The notes: generated by a model not told the origin, from the letters alone. A stretch of 11,469 nucleotides of DNA from a virus (IMGVR_UViG_2695420644_000002), one strand, 5' to 3'. Shown: positions 1 to 11,469, numbered from the stretch's first letter. Translations and numbers: made by a program.

Positions 1-1
1 G

Positions 2-154
2 GAAGCCTTCTCCGGACGCTCACAGGCTATCCGGGAAGCCGTCGGGGAAGACGCCTCGCTGAAATCCCGGGATGTGGCGGCACTGGATACGCGTAAATCC
101 AAACAGCACGTCGATCCTGAAGTCAGAATGGCTGAATGGATGCAGACGCTGTGA
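2..154 (+). CDS. 3' end of an unidentified ORF (partial, runs off the window start)
   Basis: Frame 2 is open from base 2 and translates [50 protein letters not shown] with TGA at 152-154. GC-rich third codon positions look coding. Product not recognised; a 50-codon open frame is not strongly significant by itself. Confidence 0.3.
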
Positions 155-393
155 GCAAGGTCACGGAAATCGTTACCAGTAATCCAGGCGATATAGAAAA
201 GTGTGTCGCCTTTTTTCACGGTATAGGTACTGCCGCTATAACTGCCTTTCGGAATGTTCCCATACTGACGGTTATAGACGATGCGTCCGTTTTCCATCTG
301 TACCGGCTGCTGAGCTACTGGCTGCACTGGCTGGATTTGCGGTTGTTGAGTAGCCTGAATTTGTGGCTGCTGTACCGGCTGAATTTGCGGTTG
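154..393 (-). CDS. nlpD: NlpD (LysM-domain murein hydrolase activator lipoprotein), internal fragment
   Basis: Minus-strand translation gives ...[80 protein letters not shown]: the Q/P-rich repeat tract followed by the LysM motif of E. coli NlpD. The match stops at both ends (N run at 396-398; divergence after DLA near 153). Confidence 0.8.
300..393 (-). repeat. Imperfect tandem repeats encoding the QPQIQPV tract inside the nlpD fragment
   Basis: Repeated units such as ctggatttgcggttg / ctgaatttgcggttg / ctgaatttgtggctg on the plus strand. This is a native feature of nlpD, not a separate element. Confidence 0.6.
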
Positions 394-400
394 CTNNNCG

Positions 401-1006
401 AATATGCTCGCGCTTAACCACTTGCATAAAACCGATATTGGCGCGCTCCGGAAAACGCTCGTGGCTTTCCAGAACAGGACCAAGCGTTTCTACCGCCGCG
501 GTATCGACATCATCGACCTGAATCACGCAATGCGGATTTCCCATCGACACCACGCCGCATAAGATTGTCTGCTCGGCGGCGCGCATAATATAGGTCTTTT
601 CCGCTTTGTTAGCGCGAAACGGCACGGCGGAAGGTTCGAAGTTGGGTTCGCCCATATTTACGCGGACCAGATCATCATCGGTGACGGTCAGAACCATCCG
701 CCCGTTGGCGGTGCTGACGCGGATATCACGCTTATTGGTCAGTCCTTTCAGACGCACAAAACGGGCAAAGCAGCGCGCACCGTTGCCGCACTGCGCCACT
801 TCACTGCCATCAGCATTGAAAATGCGATAGTGAAAATCCAGTTCAGGATCATACGGCGGCTCAACCACCAGCAGTTGGTCAAACCCTACCCCCAGGTGCC
901 GATCAGCCAGGCGACGAATCAGCTCCGGTGAAAAAAAGACATTCTGCGTTACCGCGTCGACGACCATAAAATCGTTGCCAAGGCCATGCATTTTCGAGAA
1001 CTGCAT
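401..1006 (-). CDS. dapF: Diaminopimelate epimerase DapF, 5' end intact, 3'-truncated at the N run
   Basis: Translation [80 protein letters not shown]...[10 protein letters not shown] matches E. coli DapF over about 200 residues. GGAG lies 6 nt upstream of the ATG at 1006. The frame runs into NNN at 396-398 and the sequence beyond is nlpD. Confidence 0.9.
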
Positions 1007-1042
1007 CATTTACTCCAATCACGCGGGTACAGAAACTGACTT

Positions 1043-1246
1043 TTAGTAATTCACCTGGGATGGACCATCGCCAGTGGCGCGATCGTTTTTATCCGGCACC
1101 GTGGATTGCGTTTGCGTCTCTACCGGTTTGGTCGGCGGCGGTGCGTTTTTATCTGCAGGCGGGAAATAGAGCGGACCTTTCAGACCGCAGCCCGTCAGGC
1201 TGAAGAGAGTAAGTAATACAGTGAGTGCCTTAAACACGTTTTTCAT
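1043..1246 (-). CDS. yifL: Small lipoprotein YifL
   Basis: 67-aa ORF MKNVFKALTVLLTLFSLTGCGLKGPLYFPP... with a lipobox (LTGC) and a Pro/Thr-rich tail, lying immediately upstream of dapF as in the E. coli yifL-dapF operon. Confidence 0.85.
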   Translation of the reverse strand: MKNVFKALTVLLTLFSLTGCGLKGPLYFPPADKNAPPPTKPVETQTQSTVPDKNDRATGDGPSQVNY

Positions 1247-1524
1247 TATGGATTGCCTGTAAAGTTCATCGCTTTCTGCTTTCTATCATCGCAGGAGAAG
1301 ACGTAAAAGCAAGCGTTTAGCGACTCTTTATGAAGTCTGAAAAGTGAGGAAATGCTGCGAGTATAACGCTTACTCGTGGGGATTTATGTTTTGCTGGTAG
1401 TTTCGTGATCGGCACCTCGCGCCAGGATGGCTTTATGCACTATCGCAATGTGGTTTGTTTGTTGTCTTTTTTAGTTCCGTCAGCGTGAGGATGCTCGCTC
1501 GGTAAACCTGATCATAATGTNNAN

Positions 1525-1677
1525 AAACGCTTGCTGTTGCCAGAACGGCAGTTCTCCGCCGCTTTCGTCACTGCTATTGAACGGCGAGTTGACGACATTG
1601 AGCGAGTCACCGCGTTTTTCAGAAAAGCCCATCGCCTCGCGGGTCAGATCTTCAATTTGCTTCATCTGTTCGTTGCT
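1525..1677 (-). CDS. fliF: Flagellar M-ring protein FliF, short internal fragment
   Basis: Minus-strand translation PLSNMKQIEDLTREAMGFSEKRGDSLNVVNSPFNSSDESGGELPFWQQQAF resembles the C-terminal region of enterobacterial FliF. Bounded by the N run at 1521-1524 and an in-frame stop at 1678-1680 that would not be present in an intact gene. Confidence 0.55.
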
Positions 1678-1680
1678 GAG

Positions 1681-2067
1681 AGGCTACGTGATGCAGATGC
1701 ACTGGTGGAAAAATCAATCTGGCTGATTGGTGGTGATGGCTGGGCTTACGATATCGGCTTTGGCGGTCTGGATCATGTATTGAGTTTGACGGAAAACGTC
1801 AACATTCTGGTGCTGGATACGCAATGCTATTCCAACACCGGTGGTCAGGCGTCGAAAGCGACACCGCTGGGTGCAGTAACTAAATTTGGCGAGCACGGCA
1901 AACGTAAAGCGCGTAAAGATCTTGGCGTCAGTATGATGATGTACGGTCATGTTTATGTGGCGCAGATTTCTCTCGGCGCGCAGCTGAACCAGACGGTGAA
2001 AGCGATTCAGGAAGCGGAAGCGTATCCGGGGCCATCGCTGATCATTGCTTATAGCCCGTGTGAAGAG
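1681..2067 (+). CDS. ydbK: Pyruvate:flavodoxin/ferredoxin oxidoreductase (PFOR), TPP-binding domain fragment
   Basis: Translation [98 protein letters not shown]...[12 protein letters not shown] carries the GDGW...YSNTGGQ thiamine-diphosphate motif region of PFOR. Only about 129 codons of a protein over 1100 aa are present, flanked by unrelated sequence. Confidence 0.7.
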
Positions 2068-3039
2068 TACTTTGGTCTGCTGTGAACCCAGGGTGATGAT
2101 GGTGGTATAGATCGCGCTGGAGAAGAAGCCCAGAGCGAGAATTGACCACGCCATATGTGCTGGTGTTCCGGTGTTAAAGACGTACATCAGAATCGCAGCC
2201 AGACCAGCCAGTACGGTCAGAATGCGTTGCAAATCAAAGAAGCGAAGAATAAAGCTGAACGCCCACATGCCGACCATGTATGACATCCAGAAGTTACTCA
2301 CCAGCGTGCCCGCGTCGTTCAGGCTCATGCCCAGGCCTTTGGCATACTCAGGCACCCAGGAGATAAAACCTAACTGACCGAGGATGTAGCACAACGCCGC
2401 AACAGAGAGAAACAGTACGCCGATCCCCCACTTTTCTTTCTCTACCGGAGCATCCGTTTTTGGCGCATGTTTGCCCAGCGCCGGGAACTCACAGCCGAAG
2501 GTCAGAATAAAAATAGCGACATCCACCAGCCCGATGCAGGCATAAACCCAGTACCACTCAATGCTGCGCGCCAGTAGAAACGCGGCGATCATTGGGAAAA
2601 TCATCCCAGCCATACTGAAGAAGGAGTCGGTAAATAACAGGCGGGAACCGCGCTGACGCCCTTCATACATTTGTGTTACCAGGAATGTACCAATCGACAT
2701 GGTGATGCCGCTGACCACCCCGAGAATGAACATCGCCGCCGAGAACAGCGCCAGGCTGTGGCTGAACATCAAACCGGCAACCGCCAGCACCATCAGGAGA
2801 AAGCCAAAACGTAACTGCGTTTTCAACGGGACGATTTCCATCAGCCAGGCGTTGAGGAAGATAGAGATTAAAATGCCGGCGTTGAGGAAGGTGAAGGTAT
2901 TACTCATACTGGAAACAGGCAGATTGAAATAATCGGCGATATTTCCCATCACCATCCCGGTGACAATAACCAACGCACCAGTCAGTGCGTAGGAGAGAAA
3001 GCTAATCCATGTGAGCTTGATGCGATTGCTGTTAGTCAT
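2068..3039 (-). CDS. tsgA: MFS transporter TsgA, 5' end intact, 3'-truncated
   Basis: Translation [44 protein letters not shown]...[16 protein letters not shown] matches E. coli TsgA for about 324 residues. The remainder of the computed 441-aa ORF is antisense to the ydbK fragment, so the gene is cut near 2067. Confidence 0.85.
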
Positions 3040-3691
3040 GATTGGCCTGCGTTCAAAAATAAAATGGCATAGCGGGATATGCCGCGAGCGGGCGATTTTA
3101 GGTGATTTTGTGATCTGTTTAAATGTTTTATTGCAATCGGTTGCTAAATTGCATTTTAAGAGTGGTGCCTCCAGGTGACGTTAACCAGTTAACAATTAAC
3201 GCCGGATACAGAGAATCCACCCATAACACTGTTTTTGGTTTTAACTGTTCCGCGTGCGCTCAGCCGCATTCACCACATCACAAAATTCACTTTAAAAAGG
3301 GCGGCAGAGCAGTCACGGAGTAAAACTGATACCGCCAAACGTCACCAGAAAATTGATAACAGAGGGCGTTGCAGCGGGGTTGTCACTTAAGCGTATGGTC
3401 AACCTGACAACCCGGTGTCCTCAACGGGGAANGNNTAACCCCGCCATACTTACCGCCGCGCCATTTCGCGGGTTGCCACAACCGGAAGCGCACGGTCGAC
3501 GAAAATTTAACGACAGGCTATCTATGAACCAGCTACCTCGCCGTGCGCTTTCGCGTTATGGTCTGACTTTTCAGGGAAATATCCTTTCAGTAAACTGTCA
3601 GTTCCGGATGCGCACCCGTGTCCGGCGCACGCACTCCACCTCACCCGTGGAGAACTCCTTAATTACTAACCTTAGCTTTGTTGATTAGCTA

Positions 3692-3910
3692 CTAACGCGG
3701 GTATGTAATCATTCTGGCAATGCTTAATGCCGCTGCTTTTTCCAGATTGGTGATATCCTGCTCCAGAGCGGACAGATTTTCAGCCTGCTTAGCCCTGGCT
3801 TCATTAGCCCATTTCAGATCCTGCGCTGCATTAATTTTCTGGCGCATCCACTCATAAAGTTCATCATCGGTATAGTCTGGCGCGATGATGACGGGTTCTC
3901 GTTTCTGCAT
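3692..3910 (-). CDS. Hypothetical prophage small protein (72 aa), predicted helical C-terminal half
   Basis: ATG at 3910 preceded by GAGGAA 7 nt upstream; product MQKREPVIIAPDYTDDELYEWMRQKINAAQDLKWANEARAKQAENLSALEQDITNLEKAAALSIARMITYPR. Last gene of a leftward three-gene string downstream of the repressor. Function not recognised; a size similarity to Rac KilR (73 aa) is only a coincidence-level hint. Confidence 0.55.
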   Translation of the reverse strand: MQKREPVIIAPDYTDDELYEWMRQKINAAQDLKWANEARAKQAENLSALEQDITNLEKAAALSIARMITYPR

Positions 3911-3939
3911 ACTGATTCCTCGCGGTGCTGTTTCGCTTA

Positions 3940-4068
3940 TCAGCCGTTAGATTTTGCCGAACTGGAAAGCGCCTGTTTAAACTCACTGAAGCTGAGAGCT
4001 TCTTCGCCTTCGGCAAGGCCTTCGAAGTATTCTTCGTAAGCCTTTTCCATGATTGTGTCGAAATCCAT
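3940..4068 (-). CDS. Hypothetical prophage small acidic protein (42 aa)
   Basis: Not in the supplied ORF track (below its length cutoff). ATG at 4068 with AGGTGAG 6-7 nt upstream and TGA at 3940-3942; product MDFDTIMEKAYEEYFEGLAEGEEALSFSEFKQALSSSAKSNG (10 acidic vs 3 basic residues). Starts 1 nt after the stop of the upstream ORF. Confidence 0.45.
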   Translation of the reverse strand: MDFDTIMEKAYEEYFEGLAEGEEALSFSEFKQALSSSAKSNG

Positions 4069-4069
4069 A

Positions 4070-4225
4070 TCACTCACCTGAGTTTCTTTCCAGCCAGCGA
4101 CGGGCACCATTTTCGGTTTTAAACGTTTTGCTTTTGGTATACGTCATTGCGGTGAACGTGCCGTCCTGGTTTGGAAACACGCCGTACACCAGAGATTCGT
4201 TGTTGCCAAGATCGATAGTATCCAT
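4070..4225 (-). CDS. Hypothetical prophage small protein (51 aa), Rac ydaF/ydaG-neighbourhood type
   Basis: Likely start is the ATG at 4225 with GAGG 5-8 nt upstream, giving MDTIDLGNNESLVYGVFPNQDGTFTAMTYTKSKTFKTENGARRWLERNSGE. The track ORF 4070..4303 begins at a TTG and is probably an over-extension. Confidence 0.5.
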   Translation of the reverse strand: MDTIDLGNNESLVYGVFPNQDGTFTAMTYTKSKTFKTENGARRWLERNSGE

Positions 4226-4303
4226 GCTGACCTCATTTCCCCTTAACGCTGGGGTAGCGGAACTGTTTGCTGAGAACACCGTGCGGTGTGTTGATGCAAA
4301 CAA

Positions 4304-4400
4304 GATTAGCCATGACTAACATATCGGTCAAGTGATTTTGTATGCTATAGCTAACATAATTGATGTGGTAAAAGATAACTCATTGATGATGTTATCTTTT
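4304..4400. promoter_or_regulatory. Operator/promoter-like region between the repressor gene and the leftward small ORFs (OL/PL-like), with a 10-bp inverted repeat over the repressor stop codon
   Basis: ATGACTAACA at 4312-4321 recurs at 4858-4867 on the other side of the repressor; GATTAGC at 4304-4310; TAGCTAACA at 4348-4356. Perfect inverted repeat AAAAGATAAC (4370-4379) / GTTATCTTTT (4391-4400) with an 11-nt loop. Possible leftward -35 TTGACC (minus strand, 4331..4326) and weak -10 TAATCT (4308..4303). Confidence 0.35.
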
Positions 4401-4799
4401 ATTTGTCCGCTGACGGGCTTTTAGTAATTCTTCAAAGAGTTTATTGAAGTTTTTTACTCGAGCTCGCATTTCGGCGAGCTGGGTATCCTGTTCTGATTCT
4501 GGCAGTGCATTAAACAGCTCAAGGAGCTCTAGTTCTTTGGGGGATAAGGCAACTGGCTTCTCAACAGGTGGTGTTGGTTGCTTGTCTTCATCGCCAAATA
4601 GAATCCATGTTGGTGAGCATTGCAATACTTTGCTGAGGGCAAAAAGGTTCTTCCCTGTAGGTTCACTATCACCCCGTTCCCATTGTGATACAGACACATG
4701 GGAGATTTTCAGGGCTTTAGCAAGAGACCTTTGGGTGTGTTTGAGGTTTTTCCGACGATACCTGATGCGTTCGCCGATAGTTAAATTTTTTGTTTCCAT
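4392..4799 (-). CDS. Prophage repressor, HTH XRE/cI-like (RacR-like), no peptidase domain
   Basis: 135-aa product METKNLTIGERIRYRRKNLKHTQRSLAKALKISHVSVSQWERGDSEPTGKNLFALSKVLQCSPTWILFGDE... shows the classic phage-repressor HTH signature (Q-x-x-V-S-x-WE-x-G...L-x-C-S-P-x-W-I/L). Divergent from a Cro-like gene across an 83-bp intergenic region containing palindromes. Confidence 0.8.
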   Translation of the reverse strand: METKNLTIGERIRYRRKNLKHTQRSLAKALKISHVSVSQWERGDSEPTGKNLFALSKVLQCSPTWILFGDEDKQPTPPVEKPVALSPKELELLELFNALPESEQDTQLAEMRARVKNFNKLFEELLKARQRTNKR

Positions 4800-4882
4800 A
4801 GTTAGCTAATGCTAAATCGTATTGACTATGTTTTTGTTAACATCTATCTTGTTAGTTATGACTAACAATAAAGGTGTTTTAA
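4800..4882. promoter_or_regulatory. Divergent promoter/operator region between the repressor and the Cro-like gene (OR-like)
   Basis: Candidate rightward sigma70 promoter: -35 TTGACT 4822-4827, 17-bp spacer, -10 TATCTT 4845-4850, then AAGGTG 6 nt before the ATG at 4883. Perfect inverted repeat TTGTTAG-N6-CTAACAA at 4849-4868 overlaps the -10. Palindrome TTAGCTAA at 4802-4809 abuts the repressor start codon. Confidence 0.5.
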
Positions 4883-5113
4883 ATGCTTAAAACTGACGCT
4901 CTTTTGTATTTCGGTTCAAAAACAAAACTTGCACAAGCAGCAGGTATTCGTTTGGCTTCGCTTTATAGCTGGAAAGGGGATTTAGTTCCCGAAGGTCGCG
5001 CGATGCGTCTACAGGAGGCATCTGGCGGGGAGCTTCAGTATGATCCCAAAGTTTATGATGAATATCGTAAGACGAAGCGGGCGGGGCGGTTGAACAATGA
5101 AAATCACTCCTGA
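4883..5113 (+). CDS. YdaS-family Cro-like HTH protein
   Basis: 76-aa product MLKTDALLYFGSKTKLAQAAGIRLASLYSWKGDLVPEGRAMRLQEASGGELQYDPKVY... fits the YdaS/Cro-like pattern (KLA..G.....L..W......P...A..L......GG.L). First rightward gene opposite the repressor, with an AAGGTG RBS. Confidence 0.65.
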   Translation: MLKTDALLYFGSKTKLAQAAGIRLASLYSWKGDLVPEGRAMRLQEASGGELQYDPKVYDEYRKTKRAGRLNNENHS

Positions 5114-5618
5114 ACAGGCTCGTGAGGCTCTGGATGCCTGGATATGTCGACCAGGAATGACACAGGAGCAGGCGACGATATTAATCACTGAAGCATTCTG
5201 GGCTTTGAAAGAGCGCCCGAACATCGATGTTCAGCGTGTCACATATGAAGGTGGCGCGATTGATCAGCGAGCGCTTGGCGTTAATCGAGTGAAGATATTT
5301 GAACGCTGGAAGGCTATCGACACCAGGGATAAGCGTGAAAAGTTCACGGCGCTAGTGCCTGCAATTATGGAGGCTATCCGGATTAATGATTTCAGGTTGT
5401 ATCGTGAAATTACTGACGGAAAAAGCATCACGTGCATGATCGCCGGGTTAAACAAAGAATATGGCGATGTGGTGGAGTCCGGACTGCTTTTTGCTGATCC
5501 TGCCGTAGTGGATCGTGAAACTGACGAACTTATAGAAAAAGCAATTGCTTTCAAACTTGCGTATCGACAGCAATACCAACAAAAAGCTGGATGGAATTAT
5601 GAGCCTTCTTTTTGCTGA
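5097..5618 (+). CDS. YdaT-family protein (prophage cII-position regulator, reported toxic on ectopic expression in Rac)
   Basis: 173-aa product MKITPEQAREALDAWICRPGMTQEQATILITEAF...VKIFERWKAIDTRDKREKFTALVPAIMEAI... aligns with my recollection of K-12 YdaT (MKI...W..P.G...KIF.RW....LLPAI). Overlaps the preceding gene by 17 nt and the next by 20 nt. Confidence 0.6.
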   Translation: MKITPEQAREALDAWICRPGMTQEQATILITEAFWALKERPNIDVQRVTYEGGAIDQRALGVNRVKIFERWKAIDTRDKREKFTALVPAIMEAIRINDFRLYREITDGKSITCMIAGLNKEYGDVVESGLLFADPAVVDRETDELIEKAIAFKLAYRQQYQQKAGWNYEPSFC

Positions 5619-6203
5619 ACGCCCACTGGTTATAAACACGCAGCTGGCAATGAAAATTGGCTTAAACGAAGCCATTGTTTTGCAACAACTGCACTACTGG
5701 TTGAGAGATACCAACTCCGGCATGGAATGTGATGGTGTTCGCTGGATTTATAACACAACGGAACAATGGCTGGAACAGTTCCCATTCTGGTCAGAGTCAA
5801 CGTTAAAGCGCGCGTTTGCAAGTCTGAAAACGCTGGGGCTTTTGCGTTGTGAAAAGCTCAATAAATCAAAGCGCGATATGACCAATTTCTACACGATCAA
5901 CTATGGGAGCGAGCTTTTAGATGGTGGCAAATTGAGCGAATCCATCGGTTCAAAATGCGCCGCTCCATCAGGTCAAAATGACACGATGGAAGAGGTCAAA
6001 ATGAAACGCTCCATTGGTTCAAAACGACCCAATGTCATCGGGTCAAAATGGCCTGATGATCTTACAGAGAATACAACAGAGATTACTACAGAGAATAAAA
6101 ACACTTTTCGTCCGGAAGCTTCGCAACCGGACCCGCAGACGACTGAACAGGATTTTTTAACCCGGAACTCCGACGCGGTTGTGTTTAGTGCGAAAAAACG
6201 CCA
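5599..6203 (+). CDS. Lambda O-like replication initiator (Rac ydaU position), 3'-truncated at N 6204
   Basis: Probable start ATG 5599: MSLLFAERPLVINTQLAMKIGLNEAIVLQQLHYWLRDTNSG...LKTLGLLRCEK..., an N-terminal winged-helix-like domain followed by a low-complexity linker encoded by the iteron array (repeated IGSK motifs). The track ORF starts further upstream at 5545. The frame continues into unrelated terminase sequence after the N at 6204. Confidence 0.6.
5941..6099. repeat. Iteron array: five direct repeats at 23-24 bp spacing plus three 12-bp repeats (candidate prophage replication origin inside the O-like gene)
   Basis: Core TCAAAATG at 5950-5957, 5973-5980, 5996-6003 and 6043-6050, with variant TCAAAACG at 6019-6026; unit consensus about tccatcGGTyCAAAATGac. 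Followed by ACAGAGA(A/T)TA repeats at 6064, 6076 and 6088 in a 68% AT stretch. Confidence 0.6.
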
Positions 6204-6205
6204 NA

Positions 6206-6592
6206 GGGGCATCCGTCTACGGAAAGCCTGTGGCCAGCATGCCACGTAAGCGAAACAAAAACGGGGTTTACCTTACCGAAATTGGTACGGATACCGCGAA
6301 AGAGCAGATTTATAACCGCTTCACACTGACGCCGGAAGGGGATGAACCGCTTCCCGGTGCCGTTCACTTCCCGAATAACCCGGATATTTTTGATCTGACC
6401 GAAGCGCAGCAGCTGACTGCTGAAGAGCAGGTCGAAAAATGGGTGGATGGCAGGAAAAAAATACTGTGGGACAGCAAAAAGCGACGCAATGAGGCGCTCG
6501 ACTGCTTCGTTTATGCGCTGGCGGCGCTGCGCATCAGTATTTCCCGCTGGCAGCTGGATCTCAGTGCACTGCTGGCGAGCCTGCAGGAAGAG
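6206..6592 (+). CDS. Lambda-type terminase large subunit (gpA-like), C-terminal fragment
   Basis: Translation ...KPVASMPRKRNKNGVYLTEIGTDTAKEQIYNRFTLTPEGDEPLPGAVHFPNNPDIFDLTEAQQLTAEEQVEKWVDGRKKILWDSKKRRNEALDCFVYALAALRISISRWQLDLSALLASLQEE matches the C-terminal region of phage lambda terminase large subunit as I recall it. Bounded by N at 6204 and NN at 6594-6595, so it lacks both its N-terminal ATPase part and its last ~25 codons. Confidence 0.8.
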
Positions 6593-6595
6593 ANN

Positions 6596-7255
6596 GCCAT
6601 GCTCGACTATCCGGAAGTGGTCGTGCGCTTAACGCTGTGGTGTATCGTTGTTGGCCTCTATCCAACCTTGCTGATGACGTTAATCGGCGTGCTGTGGTTT
6701 CCCAGTCGTGCCATTTCGCAAATGCATCAGGCGCTTAATGATCGGCTTGATGATGCCATTAGTCACCTGACAGACAGCCTCGCACCGCTACCCGAAACGC
6801 GGATTGAAAGAGAGGCGCTGGCGCTACAAAAACTCAATGTCTTTTGCCTCGCGGACGATGCCAACTGGCGAACTCAAAACGCATGGTGGCAAAGCTGCGT
6901 GGCAACGGTAACCTACATTTACTCGACGCTGAATCGCTACGATCCCACCTCTTTTGCTGATTCTCAGGCAATTATTGAATTCCGACAAAAATTAGCTTCA
7001 GAAATCAACAAGCTGCAGCATGCCGTTGCTGAAGGTCAGTGCTGGCAAAGCGACTGGCGGATCAGTGAAAGTGAAGCGATGGCGGCACGGGAATGTAACC
7101 TGGAGAATATCTGCCAGACGTTGTTACAACTGGGTCAGATGGACCCGAATACGCCGCCAACGCCCGCAGCCAAACCGCCATCAATGGCCGCCGATGCTTT
7201 TACCAATCCAGACTATATGCGCTACGCGGTAAAAACGCTGCTCGCCTGTTTGATC
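6596..7255 (+). CDS. FUSC-family (fusaric acid resistance / aromatic acid exporter-like) inner membrane protein, internal fragment
   Basis: Translation AMLDYPEVVVRLTLWCIVVGLYPTLLMTLIGVLWFP...PDYMRYAVKTLLACLI: a hydrophobic segment, a long soluble linker, then the characteristic start of the second membrane domain. Which E. coli paralogue is not determinable from memory. Confidence 0.55.
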
Positions 7256-7258
7256 NGT

Positions 7259-7873
7259 TGCGCCGTAGCCCTGTACCACGTTCAGCACGCCCGCCGGAAT
7301 ACCGGCTTCCAGCGCCAGCTCACCCAGGCGGTCAGCGGTCAGCGGGGAGAGTTCTGACATCTTCAGCACCGCAGTATTGCCCAGCGCAAGACACGGCGCG
7401 ACCTTCCATGTGGCGGTCATAAACGGCACGTTCCACGGCGATACCAGCGCACAAACGCCTACCGGTTGCACCAGCGTGTAGTTGAGCATCTTGTCGTCAA
7501 CCGGATAGGTCTTGCCGTTCATCTGCTGGCAGACTTCCGCGAAAAATTCAAAGTTGTGAGAAGCGCGTGGGATCAACACATTTTTGGTCTGATGGATCGG
7601 CAGGCCCGTGTCCGCGGTTTCCATCGCGGCGATCTCAGGCACGTTCTGGTCGATCAGATCGCCCAGACGGCGCATCAGGCGCGCACGCTCTTTCATCGGC
7701 AGATTGGCCCATTTCGGGAACGCCTCTTTCGCTGCCGCTACCGCCTGATTGATCTCCGCTTCACCGCCAGAGGCCACATCCGCCAGCACTTCACCCGTCG
7801 CCGGATTGGTGGTCTGGAAGTAGTCGTTACCTGCAACATTTTTGCCGTTGATCCAATGATTTACTTTTTTCAT
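7259..7873 (-). CDS. hpaE: 5-carboxymethyl-2-hydroxymuconate semialdehyde dehydrogenase HpaE, N-terminal ~205 codons (3'-truncated at N 7256)
   Basis: Translation MKKVNHWINGKNVAGNDYFQTTNPATGEVLADVASGGEAEINQAVAAAKEAFPKWANLPMKERARLMRRLGDLIDQNVPEIAAMETADTGLPIHQTKNV...VVQGYGA matches HpaE of the E. coli 4-hydroxyphenylacetate meta-cleavage operon. GAGGAA RBS; start ATG overlaps the hpaG stop (ATGA at 7870-7873). Confidence 0.9.
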
Positions 7874-9159
7874 TTCGCTGTTTCCTCACTCACAATTCGG
7901 TTCACCAGGCAGCCCACGCCTTCTACTTCCACCACTACTTCATCGCCAGGCACCACGTCAGATAAGCCTTTTGGTGTGCCGGTGGCGATCATGTCGCCCG
8001 GATTCAGGGTCATAAATTCGCTTAAGTAGGCGATCAGGAAGGGCACGCTGAAGATCAGATCGGCGGTGGTGCCTTGCTGGCGTAACTCGCCGTTGACGAA
8101 GGTGCGAAGGGTCAGATTATGCGGGTCCGGGATCGCCTCTTTCGGCACGATGGTTGAAAGCATCGGCGTCAGTCCGTCGCGGCTTTTTACCCGCAGGTTA
8201 GGGCGGTAGTAGTTTTCCAGATAGTCGCGAATGGCGTAGTCGTTACACACGGTGTAGCCCGCGACATAATCCATGGCATCGGCTTCGCTGACGTTACGCG
8301 CCTGTTTGCCAATAACTACCACCAGCTCCGCTTCATAGTGCATGTATTCAATATTGTTTGGACGCACGGAGGTCTGGTTATCGCCAGTGAGGGTATTTGG
8401 CGCTTTCAGGAACACCAGCGGTTCTTCCGGTGGCTTAAATTCCAGTTCGCTGGCGTGGTCGGCGTAGTTCAGGCCGAGGGCAAACAGCGTGCCGTGCGGG
8501 TGTGGCTGCGTTGGGAAGCTCTTGCGCGTGGTCACTTCACGTTCGTCCACTACCGGATTTTCCAGCGGCGGGAAACCTTCTGCGAGAACACGAACGCGAT
8601 CGCCTGGCTGTATTTCCACGCGCGCCTGTGGCGTGCCGAGCAGAATGGCATCGCCTGGATTCAGTGTGGCAAATTCGCTCAGGGCGCTCAGCAACTGCGC
8701 GGCGTTACGTTGTAAATCGGCGGTATTCCAGTGATCGGCAGGACGCCCGTTGATCTCGGTATAGATGGTCAGATTATCGACATTGCTGAGAGCCACGGTT
8801 TCGCCAATGGGGCAGAATCCATCACGACATTTTGCTTTGATTGCCGGGCGGTAAAAGCTCTCTTCCGGCAGGCTGACGTCGTTAGCCAGCGCATATCCGG
8901 CGATGTACTCTGCCGCATCTTCTTCACGTACTTTCGTCGCCGTTTTTCCCACAATCAGCGCAACAGTCGCACCGCTCAGTACCTTTTCACCCTGTGGAAA
9001 GGGAATCGGTTCACCGCAACCAATCACCGTATTGCGCGGTTTAATAAACCAGACCGCAGTTTTAGGCGGGGCTTTGTAGGGGGATTGCTGGAACGCTTCC
9101 TGCCATGCATCAAGTTGGCTGCGATGGTTCAACGCTACGGCGAAGATAGTGCCTTTCAT
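7870..9159 (-). CDS. hpaG: Bifunctional 2-oxo-hept-3-ene-1,7-dioate isomerase / 5-carboxymethyl-2-oxo-hex-3-ene-1,7-dioate decarboxylase HpaG (complete, 429 aa)
   Basis: Translation MKGTIFAVALNHRSQLDAWQEAFQQSPYKAPPKTAVWFIKPRNTVIGCGEPIPFPQGEKVLSGATVALIVGK... with two FAH-like repeats. ATG at 9159 has GAGGAG 5 nt upstream; the track ORF adds two codons from a GTG at 9165. Length matches HpaG. Confidence 0.9.
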   Translation of the reverse strand: MKGTIFAVALNHRSQLDAWQEAFQQSPYKAPPKTAVWFIKPRNTVIGCGEPIPFPQGEKVLSGATVALIVGKTATKVREEDAAEYIAGYALANDVSLPEESFYRPAIKAKCRDGFCPIGETVALSNVDNLTIYTEINGRPADHWNTADLQRNAAQLLSALSEFATLNPGDAILLGTPQARVEIQPGDRVRVLAEGFPPLENPVVDEREVTTRKSFPTQPHPHGTLFALGLNYADHASELEFKPPEEPLVFLKAPNTLTGDNQTSVRPNNIEYMHYEAELVVVIGKQARNVSEADAMDYVAGYTVCNDYAIRDYLENYYRPNLRVKSRDGLTPMLSTIVPKEAIPDPHNLTLRTFVNGELRQQGTTADLIFSVPFLIAYLSEFMTLNPGDMIATGTPKGLSDVVPGDEVVVEVEGVGCLVNRIVSEETAK

Positions 9160-9430
9160 TACCACTCCTCGGATTCGATCATCTTAATCATTAATATGTT
9201 AATGATTACTTTTATTCCCGATTGCGTAGTTTGGCAAAAGTAAGTGATGTAAATGTGATCTAATTAACAAACTATTTACATTTAAGGATAATAAAATATT
9301 AAATATCAGTAAGTTAATAAAATATCATCAATTTTGATAAAATCAGGAATTGCAGGGGCAGCGCAGTCCCGGTAACGTGACGATTAACTGTTTCTATATT
9401 AATGATTTTGAATTTTTCAGGGGAAAGATA
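9160..9430. promoter_or_regulatory. hpaG-hpaR divergent control region: HpaR operator-like palindrome, CRP-like site, AT-rich tract
   Basis: Perfect inverted repeat TAATCATTAA-TATG-TTAATGATTA at 9185-9208 just upstream of hpaG. CRP-like TGTGA-N6-TAACA at 9254-9269 (one mismatch to TGTGA-N6-TCACA). The whole region is strongly AT-rich. Confidence 0.55.
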
Positions 9431-9877
9431 ATGCACGACTCACTAACCATTGCGTTGCTCCAGGCGCGAGAAGCGGCGATGAGTTATTTTCGCCCAATCG
9501 TTAAACGGCATAATTTGACTGAGCAACAGTGGCGCATCGTGCGTATTCTGGCGGAAAGCCCATCAATGGATTTTCACGATCTGGCGTATCGCGCCTGCAT
9601 TTTGCGCCCAAGCCTGACCGGGATCCTCACGCGGATGGAACGCGACGGTTTAGTGTTGCGATTAAAGCCGATCAATGATCAGCGGAAGCTCTATATCTCG
9701 CTGACCAAAGAGGGGCAGGCGCTGTATAACCGCGCCCAGACACAGATTGAAGAAGCCTATCGGCAGATTGAAGCTCAGTTTACTGCCGAGAAAATGCAAC
9801 AGTTAACCCATCTGCTAGAGGAATTTATTGCTCTGGGTAATTCCCGACAAGAAGACATCCCGGGCGATAATGAATAA
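9431..9877 (+). CDS. hpaR: MarR-family repressor HpaR of the homoprotocatechuate (hpa) meta operon (complete, 148 aa)
   Basis: Translation MHDSLTIALLQAREAAMSYFRPIVKRHNLTEQQWRIVRILAESPSMDFHDLAYRACILRPSLTGILTRMERDGLVLRLKPINDQRKLYISLTKEGQALYNRAQ..., a MarR-type winged helix, divergent from hpaG. ATG at 9431 preceded by AGGGGAAAG; the track ORF starting at 9350 is an upstream over-extension. Confidence 0.9.
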   Translation: MHDSLTIALLQAREAAMSYFRPIVKRHNLTEQQWRIVRILAESPSMDFHDLAYRACILRPSLTGILTRMERDGLVLRLKPINDQRKLYISLTKEGQALYNRAQTQIEEAYRQIEAQFTAEKMQQLTHLLEEFIALGNSRQEDIPGDNE

Positions 9878-9904
9878 CTTTTTAGTATCTGATAACCAGC
9901 GCNT

Positions 9905-10861
9905 GAAACATGGCATTACGACTTCCATCATCGGCGCGGAGTGATTGTTGAAGGCGGCAAGATGAGTAACCTTGATGCGATGGATATTACCGCGCCGTAT
10001 ACGCCTGGAGCGCTGCGCGGCGGCAGCCATGTGCATGTCTTTAGCCCGAACGGTGAAAGGGTGAGCTTTACCTATAACGACCATGTAATGCATCAACTCG
10101 ATCCGGCGCTGGATTTGCGAAACGTCGGTGTTGCTGCACCGTTTGGCCCGGTCAATGTACAAAAGCAGCATCCGCGTGAGTACAGTGGTAGCCACTGGTG
10201 CGTGCTGGTGAGTAAAACCACGCCCACGCCGCAGCCAGGCAGTGATGAAATCAATCGTGCTTATGAAGAAGGATGGGTAGGAAATCACACGCTGGCGTTT
10301 ATTGGCGACACACTTTCGCCAAAGGGCGAGAAAGTGCCGGAGCTGTTTATCGTTGAGTTACCGCAAGATGAAGCTGGCTGGAAAGCGGCAGGTGATGCGC
10401 CGTTAAGTGGAACGGAAACCACCCTGCCCGCGCCACCGCGCGGCGTCGTGCAGCGACGTTTAACCTTTACCCACCATCGGGCTTATCCGGGGTTAGTCAA
10501 CGTCCCGCGCCACTGGGTGCGCTGTAATCCGCAGGGTACGCAAATCGCGTTTTTAATGCGTGATGATAACGGCATTGTGCAACTATGGCTTATCTCGCCA
10601 CAGGGCGGCGAGCCGCGCCAGTTAACCCATAACAAAACGGATATTCAGTCTGCATTTAACTGGCATCCATCAGGAGAATGGTTGGGCTTTGTGCTGGATA
10701 ATCGAATTGCTTGTGCCCATGCGCAAAGCGGCGAGGTTGAGTATTTAACCGAAAACCACGCCAATCCGCCTTCTGCGGATGCCGTGGTCTTCTCACCGGA
10801 TGGTCAATGGCTGGCGTGGATGGAAGGTGGCCAGCTGTGGATCACCGAAACTGATCGCTAA
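9905..10861 (+). CDS. yidR: YidR-like DUF3748 beta-propeller protein, 5'-truncated at N 9903
   Basis: Frame is open from 9896 through the N with no plausible start until the internal GTG at 9941 or ATG at 9962. Translation ETWHYDFHHRRGVIVEGGKMSNLDAMDITAPYTPGALRGGSHVHVFSPNGERVSFTYNDH...GQWLAWMEGGQLWITETDR; convergent with yidQ. The yidR symbol is from memory of the K-12 yidQ neighbourhood. Confidence 0.6.
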   Translation, partial: ETWHYDFHHRRGVIVEGGKMSNLDAMDITAPYTPGALRGGSHVHVFSPNGERVSFTYNDHVMHQLDPALDLRNVGVAAPFGPVNVQKQHPREYSGSHWCVLVSKTTPTPQPGSDEINRAYEEGWVGNHTLAFIGDTLSPKGEKVPELFIVELPQDEAGWKAAGDAPLSGTETTLPAPPRGVVQRRLTFTHHRAYPGLVNVPRHWVRCNPQGTQIAFLMRDDNGIVQLWLISPQGGEPRQLTHNKTDIQSAFNWHPSGEWLGFVLDNRIACAHAQSGEVEYLTENHANPPSADAVVFSPDGQWLAWMEGGQLWITETDR

Positions 10862-10862
10862 A

Positions 10863-11195
10863 TCAGTTATCAGGCATTCTGGCCGGTGGAATAACCGCAT
10901 TGGTGGCTTGCGCGTTGGCTTCGCTTTTTTCAACGCGTGAGCGCACCGAGCTGTCTTTGCGGAACACATCCCACGGCAGTAAAAGCGTGTCCATCACAGC
11001 GGTAAACGGCATATCGAGAATCGCCAGCGACTTAGTGCCCCAGTTGGTTTCATCGTCGCCAATCATGGTGGCGCTGGCGCGGGTGCCGGGATACGTTCCT
11101 TCTTTCCCCCCGGTATGGGACATCACGCTGGAGCATCCTCCGAGTAATGTCATTCCGCTGCATATCATGAACGCTAACAACACATTTCTTATCAT
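10863..11195 (-). CDS. yidQ: Outer-membrane lipoprotein YidQ (DUF1375), complete 110 aa
   Basis: Real start is the internal ATG at 11195: MIRNVLLAFMICSGMTLLGGCSSVMSHTGGKEGTYPG... with signal peptide and lipobox (LGGC). The 34-codon N-terminal extension in the track ORF (from 11297) is not supported. Stop codon lies 1 nt from the yidR stop. Confidence 0.8.
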   Translation of the reverse strand: MIRNVLLAFMICSGMTLLGGCSSVMSHTGGKEGTYPGTRASATMIGDDETNWGTKSLAILDMPFTAVMDTLLLPWDVFRKDSSVRSRVEKSEANAQATNAVIPPARMPDN

Positions 11196-11382
11196 AATAA
11201 ATTCATCTGTTGATCGTGGGTGTTGGCCTGATGAGTTATAGCGATCCCTTGCTGAAAATAACATCATCATTACGTCGCTCTGTGGCGGCAATCGCACTTT
11301 AACGTTTCGTGCTGCCCCCTCAGTCTATGCAATAGACCATAAACTGCAAAAAAAAGTCCGCTGATAAGGCTTGAAAAGTTCA

Positions 11383-11469
11383 TTCCAGCCGCTTGTTCAG
11401 TACATGGTAAAGACGCTGAGTTTCAACCTGATAACGTTCAATAGCGTAAGGAATGGTTTGGGGGGCTGC
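11383..11469 (-). CDS. yfcG: GST-like disulfide-bond oxidoreductase YfcG, short internal fragment (29 codons, runs off the window end)
   Basis: Minus-strand translation AAPQTIPYAIERYQVETQRLYHVLNKRLE matches my recollection of an internal YfcG segment, which continues NSPWLGG in the native protein. Here it is followed instead by TGA and the yidQ upstream region, so the gene is cut at about 11383. Confidence 0.55.

Follow-up and report, generated by a model that had tools for sequence, protein, structure and literature searches.

Chimeric contigs in draft short-read assemblies join unlinked loci end to end, break in the middle of genes and carry short runs of N at the joins; each junction occurs in a single record, and gene finders call false fusion ORFs across them. 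The stretch of DNA that we analyzed at its full length of 11,469 nucleotides (hereafter the window) resembles such contigs in each of these respects, but it departs from the usual case in packing 11 joins into 11.5 kb, in having pieces as short as 81–158 bp and in showing a bias toward AGAG at its breakpoints. Four properties that mark a chimeric contig, namely unlinked loci, unique junctions, breakpoints blind to gene boundaries and Ns at positions where the joined sequences conflict, were all found here.

Cryptic lambdoid prophages of the Qin/Rac type, which are commonly eroded by internal deletions, offer a second comparison. Positions 3163–6203 are genuine Qin-like sequence, and the gene for the terminase large subunit (terL), a fragment of which follows in the window, lies downstream in the same type of prophage. 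Unlike a deletion scar in such a prophage, however, the junction between the O-like replication gene and terL has an N at a base on which its two sides disagree, gives way to mdtO 389 bp further on and was found in no other genome. A third comparison is with natural multidomain fusions, which the window resembles in that a single frame spans the TerL nuclease domain and the mid-region of MdtO, both in their native frames. Unlike such fusions, this frame is built from internal fragments cut through domains, begins out of frame in one gene and ends antisense to another (hpaE), and has no homologue by exact-sequence look-up in a protein collection.

These comparisons, together with the evidence below, lead us to regard the window as a contig from a draft Escherichia coli genome that is very probably chimeric, misassembled by joins made in silico. 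The apparent fusion of replication, terminase and membrane-transporter genes that drew attention to it is almost certainly a genome-assembly error.

Twelve pieces from unlinked loci

The window is the reverse complement of a complete public whole-genome shotgun contig, CCCC01000124.1 of assembly GCA_000937575.1. An exact look-up of a chimeric ORF that begins in tsgA (described below) returned this contig and no other, and a search of the literature for the assembly accession (CCCC01, GCA_000937575) found nothing relevant. Local BLAST comparisons with native loci taken from complete genomes, supplemented by further searches, divided the window into 12 E. coli pieces of 81–3041 bp that are 98.7–100% identical to their native loci. 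In K-12 terms the 12 source loci lie megabases apart, and one of them is plasmid-borne. Most of the 11 junctions between the pieces fall in mid-gene, and the breakpoints ignore the limits of genes and domains: the O-like gene is cut at codon 201 of 321, terL is represented by codons 491–619 of 641, mdtO by codons 144–363 of 683, and hpaE is broken at about codon 205 of 488.

The first piece (1–151, plus strand) lies inside the coding sequence of traI, the relaxase gene of conjugative F-type plasmids, and matches more than 4,000 plasmids at 98.7% identity. It directly abuts an internal, chromosomal fragment of nlpD (152–395, minus strand; 100% identical to nlpD of strain CP53), and positions 1–395 contain no N. 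The third piece (399–1520, minus strand; 100% identity) comprises the 5′ part of dapF, lptM and the remnant of a DKNYY pseudogene, and is followed by a 158-bp internal fragment of fliF (1525–1682, minus strand) and by 385 bp from the interior of ydbK, encoding pyruvate-flavodoxin oxidoreductase (1683–2067, plus strand; 100% identical to MG1655). Piece 6 (2068–3162, minus strand) carries codons 1 to about 324 of tsgA with the upstream region of that gene. Reading from tsgA into the neighboring piece, a false 441-aa ORF (1714–3039, minus strand) continues from TsgA codon 1 to about codon 324 into antisense ydbK and contains no N.

Piece 7 (3163–6203, plus strand), the early region of a Qin-like cryptic prophage, is, apart from its Ns, 100% identical to positions 20001–23041 of a locus from strain 2014C-3075 (L001). 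It contains ydfC, ydfB and ydfA, an intact gene for the antisense sRNA DicF (3299–3350, minus strand; Rfam RF00039, 76.7 bits), dicA (4392–4799, minus strand), dicC (4883–5113), a YdaT-family gene (5097–5618) and the O-like replication initiator gene (5599–6203, plus strand; PHROGs family phrog_391), which is cut after codon 201 of 321. An iteron-like array lies within the O-like gene (5927–6058, plus strand) and consists of five copies of a GGTCAAAATG core with a period of ~23 nt, an arrangement that resembles the lambda origin inside gene O; this array is native to the prophage piece, which is genuine, and has no part in the artefact. A second pair of repeats, 14 nt long, is found at 6063–6100. 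The genuine biology in the window (the Qin-like early region, DicF, dicA and dicC, the YdaT-family gene and the O-like gene with its iterons) is already known.

Pieces 8 and 9, the fragments of terL (6205–6593, plus strand) and mdtO (6596–7255, plus strand), each retain their native frame. Beyond them, piece 10 (7257–9902, minus strand) holds the 5′ part of hpaE (7257–7873, minus strand), hpaG (7870–9159, minus strand) and hpaR (9431–9877, plus strand), and piece 11 (9904–11388, plus strand) holds yidR without its 5′ end (to 10861, plus strand), yidQ (10863–11195, minus strand) and some of the sequence that lies upstream of ibpA. The last piece is an 81-bp fragment of yfcG (11389–11469, minus strand), and its junction falls within a TTCCAG hexamer shared by the two sides.

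We then asked whether the same order of sequences occurs anywhere else, counting as a spanning place any single location that covered at least 80% of either positions 5400–7500 or the whole window. Of 5,426 complete genomes of E. coli, none contained such a place, and none had a place that spanned any of the junctions: by megablast, positions 5400–7500 were covered to at most 39% at any one place, with the best matches stopping at 6209, and the best single-place coverage of the whole window was 27%. Among 50,697 phage records we found neither a join of the O-like gene to terL nor any record spanning the junction at 6204 or the one at 6594–6595. Sequence patterns across 6204 and across 3162/3163 were likewise absent from three contig collections (genome_contigs, viral_contigs and metagenome_contigs). 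Natural fusion or adjacency was therefore rejected as a candidate, there being no instance in the complete E. coli genomes, the phage records, species-representative genomes, or viral or metagenome contigs.

The 6179–7357 reading frame and its parts

The ORF at 6179–7357 (plus strand; 392 aa, with a TTG start) is present in the window as the preliminary description had reported, and it crosses the Ns at 6204, 6594–6595 and 7256. That description had it built from three unrelated pieces set apart by N and NN. The Ns and the lack of relationship between the sequences flanking 6204 and 6594–6595 held up, but a fourth piece had been overlooked, since the last 33 codons and the stop codon, after the N at 7256, are antisense to hpaE. 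Nor does the ORF contain O-like protein: although the O-like gene is indeed the source of its beginning, the contribution amounts to 25 nt (6179–6203), which are read as the eight N-terminal codons in a different frame (the O-like gene runs from 5599 in frame 1, the ORF from 6179 in frame 2). The terL and mdtO fragments, by comparison, are both in their native frames and happen to be in phase with each other. Such phasing is expected by chance one time in three, and the flanking sequences likewise happen to be free of stop codons. The 392-aa frame is thus an accidental by-product of the joins, running from 25 nt of out-of-frame O-like sequence through N, terL, NN, mdtO and N to antisense hpaE. 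In the gene calls that accompany the public contig it appears as a 372-aa gene at 6239–7357 with no Pfam match. The fusion protein predicted across the O-like/terL junction (with X as either Q or H) was absent from ~15 billion proteins in an exact-sequence look-up; the intact 321-aa O-like protein was found in the same kind of look-up on at least 1000 contigs.

The O-like gene itself retains 201 of its 321 codons in the window, after which its frame continues for 15 out-of-frame codons into the terL piece before reaching a stop at 6247–6249. The intact 321-aa homologue matches phrog_391 ('replication initiation O-like') with an E value of 1e-91, whereas the fragment in the window matches at 7.6e-29 and covers only profile positions 11–182 of 298. 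The native gene is a member of phrog_391, and the copy in the window is an incomplete representation of it, cut at a false join. PHROGs alone identifies the protein, which matched no family in Pfam or NCBIfam. The last 20 residues of the intact protein (whose gene lies at L001 22437–23402) are weakly similar to the C terminus of the primosomal protein DnaT (NCBIfam PRK02854), with an E value of 0.006 that falls far short of the cut-off; the copy in the window lacks these residues.

What had been called a terminase C terminus (6205–6593) corresponds to codons 491–619 of the 641 in a lambda-type terminase large subunit and is 100% identical over its 389 nt to 8 genomes. Its assignment to terminase was sound: the encoded segment matches the GpA nuclease domain (PF20454) with an E value of 1.4e-19 and 70.9 bits against a cut-off of 22.5. 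It covers only profile positions 194–286 of 294, however, and is a fragment that lacks the last 22 codons of the gene, so it is not the true C terminus. The piece that had been placed in the FUSC family (6596–7255) is a fragment of MdtO, codons 144–363 of 683 (NCBIfam PRK11427, E 7.6e-120). Its similarity to the Pfam FUSC family is sub-threshold (E 0.009, 15.1 bits against a cut-off of 30.9), and its 401.5 bits fall below the cut-off of 821 for the NCBIfam MdtO equivalog. Its nucleotide sequence matches mdtO of K-12 MG1655 (record NZ_CP032667.1) at 100% identity; mdtO is a chromosomal gene with no link to any prophage.

The native arrangement is preserved in strain 2014C-3075, where the O-like gene and terL lie on the same strand of one Qin-like prophage. 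Between the last O-like base kept in the window (L001 23041) and the first terL base kept (39995), 16,953 bp are skipped. This interval encodes a DUF977 protein, a methyltransferase, relBE, hokD, ydfU, the antiterminator ydfT, csp genes, essD/rrrQ/rzpQ, nohA and the first 490 codons of terL. The preliminary description had held that lambdoid gene order keeps replication and terminase apart and that the adjacency of an O-like gene, a terminase and a host membrane protein is no natural prophage layout; the gene-filled interval in this intact prophage bears out the first point, and the interval together with the chromosomal location of mdtO bears out the second. As it had also anticipated, BLAST searches with the three pieces separately placed them apart in native genomes, and the counterexample that it had named, a prophage containing this exact junction natively, did not turn up in the complete E. 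coli genomes, phage records or contig collections that we searched. On the misassembly reading, the cell does not have these three sequences side by side. Two features go beyond what had been described: the whole contig is a 12-piece patchwork, and the ORF reads its O-like part in the wrong frame.

N characters and sequence at the junctions

The window contains 14 N characters at seven sites (396–398; 1521–1522 and 1524; 3432 and 3434–3435; 6204; 6594–6595; 7256; and 9903), six of which coincide exactly with junctions between pieces (P about 1e-13). When the two native continuations at every junction were aligned to the window, each of the 11 Ns located at junctions fell at a position where the two native sequences differ from each other, and nine of the 12 bases bounding the N runs were common to both (P about 4e-4). 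At 396–398, NNN replaces ggg on the nlpD side and aaa on the dapF side, and the bounding T and C agree in both. At 1521–1524 the sequence reads NNAN, and the called A at 1523 is the sole position at which the dapF-side and fliF-side natives agree. The N at 6204 stands for G on the O side and A on the terL side, with A6203 and the GGGG at 6206–6209 common to the two; the native continuation of the O-like gene past 6203 is GTGGGGTAGC, and the native sequence preceding 6204 on the terL side is CCCCATTAA. The pattern recurs at 6594–6595 (at in terL, cc in mdtO, with the next base G in common), at 7256 (T in mdtO, G on the hpaE side, with the flanking C and GTT in common) and at 9903 (C on one side, A on the other, with the following TG in common). 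Because Ns occupy the positions at which the natives disagree, they point to a consensus drawn over conflicting sequences rather than to unanimous reads of a real, single-copy junction.

The one N site away from a break in synteny is the cluster NGNN at 3432–3435 (native GGAA), where the sequence on both sides is natively contiguous in L001. The Ns are therefore not exclusively marks of junctions. This cluster may reflect either the correct joining of two adjacent units or a conflict with, or collapse of, a paralogous prophage copy.

At no junction do the native sequences overlap by more than 0–6 nt. Repeats of the length that genuine recombination, or a path through an assembly graph by way of a repeat, would require are thus missing from the flanks, and both repeat-mediated recombination and a graph mis-join were rejected on this ground. 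Neither did we find an adapter or linker remnant of 8 nt or more at the junctions when they were checked against TruSeq, Nextera, 454, Ion and SMART sequences; these gave 7-mer matches only, and 40% of random 30-nt windows contain such a match.

A native AGAG stands immediately 5′ of four of the 11 junctions (left sides at 1682, 2067, 3162 and 6592; P about 3e-8, given a background of 36 AGAG in 11,469 nt). The left ends concerned are GCTGAGAG, GTGAAGAG, TTTAAGAG and GGAAGAG; in the orientation of the public record the pieces at these junctions begin with CTCT. No adapter remnant accounts for the bias, which suggests that some technical step acted systematically. Switching of templates at AGAG microhomology was considered and set aside, as the right-hand natives have no AGAG before the junction. 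A type IIS restriction site was also considered, GAAGAG being the EarI site in reverse, but this enzyme would make its cut on the opposite side of the site, and the idea was dropped on that basis.

How the joins may have arisen

Among the explanations that we weighed, the preferred one is that software would have joined some twelve short units end to end, each assembled correctly but drawn from a place unlinked to the others, whether in the chromosome, in a Qin/lambda-type prophage or on an F-type plasmid. The joining step would most likely have been scaffolding, gap closing or the merging of contigs, with a subsequent consensus call in which either forced overlaps of a few bases or the meeting of reads from two true loci could have left conflicting bases to be written as N. 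We infer that a program, and not the formation of chimeric DNA molecules, was responsible for the joins and that reads spanning the junctions are lacking. The sizes of the pieces (81–3041 bp) also fit assembled units better than they fit sheared library fragments.

The junction between the O-like gene and terL deserves separate consideration, as it is the only one of the 11 whose two sides are collinear in a single locus. Collinearity of this sort would arise by chance at any of the 11 junctions with a probability of ~2%, and it hints that either a deletion is real here or a scaffolder followed a true long-range link. If this join alone were real, illegitimate recombination would have removed 16,953 bp of the prophage, from O codon 202 to terL codon 490, and 3163–6593 would be a genuine unit whose two ends were then falsely joined, as those of the other pieces were. 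The strain would then carry a strain-specific fusion of the origin-bearing 5′ two-thirds of an initiator gene to the 3′ quarter of terL. A single prophage does contain the two sides, which share a strand and follow the order expected of a deletion; both are 100% identical to strain 2014C-3075, they have A6203 and the GGGG at 6206–6209 in common, and the loss of internal segments is frequent among cryptic lambdoid prophages. The N at 6204, however, sits exactly at the discordant base (G versus A), as Ns do at five junctions that are certainly false, which implies that reads of both native continuations were present. Base 6205 is of the terL type, moreover, so a crossover within the shared GGGG is precluded and the usable microhomology is at most 1 nt, and the terL piece ends after 389 bp at the false mdtO join rather than at the end of the gene. 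The junction is also absent from the 5,426 complete genomes, the phage records and the three contig collections, as is the predicted fusion protein from the ~15 billion proteins. Thus, although the collinear sides of a deletion scar are found here, native continuation on both sides of the scar and an unambiguous, independent occurrence of the junction are not, and we consider a real deletion unlikely. Circularization during mate-pair library construction was discarded as a source of this join: it would put the downstream piece first, whereas the observed order, as deduced from the coordinates, is that of a deletion.

It is also conceivable that the joins existed in physical DNA made in the laboratory (ligation concatemers, chimeric clones or amplification chimeras) and were then faithfully assembled. 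End-to-end joins with overlaps of 0–6 nt are what blunt ligation would produce, and the AGAG at four of the 11 left ends could reflect an enzymatic or priming step. Eleven consecutive joins, each unique, would nevertheless all have needed enough read support to be assembled, and the Ns at discordant positions speak of conflicting rather than unanimous reads. The size range of 81–3041 bp is moreover unlike that of a size-selected library, and no junction retains a linker or adapter remnant of at least 8 nt. We therefore regard physical chimeras as very improbable, less probable still than a deletion at the O-like/terL junction; even if they were the source, the ORF fusion would be an artefact.

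The fusion at 6179–7357 has no biological significance and is not a real feature, and the value of the window is instead that of a quality flag. That CCCC01000124.1 is a patchwork makes the remainder of GCA_000937575.1 suspect. Scans for unusual gene neighborhoods or fusions should filter out contigs of this kind, for which a run of 1–4 Ns at a break in synteny serves as a signal. The contig gives rise to at least three false proteins: the 372-aa TerL–MdtO–antisense-HpaE protein, the 441-aa TsgA–antisense-YdbK protein and a truncated O-like protein of 216 aa. Assembly chimeras are, moreover, leaking into protein databases, as at least the 441-aa protein (P0001) is already held in a large public protein collection, where it occurs on one contig only.
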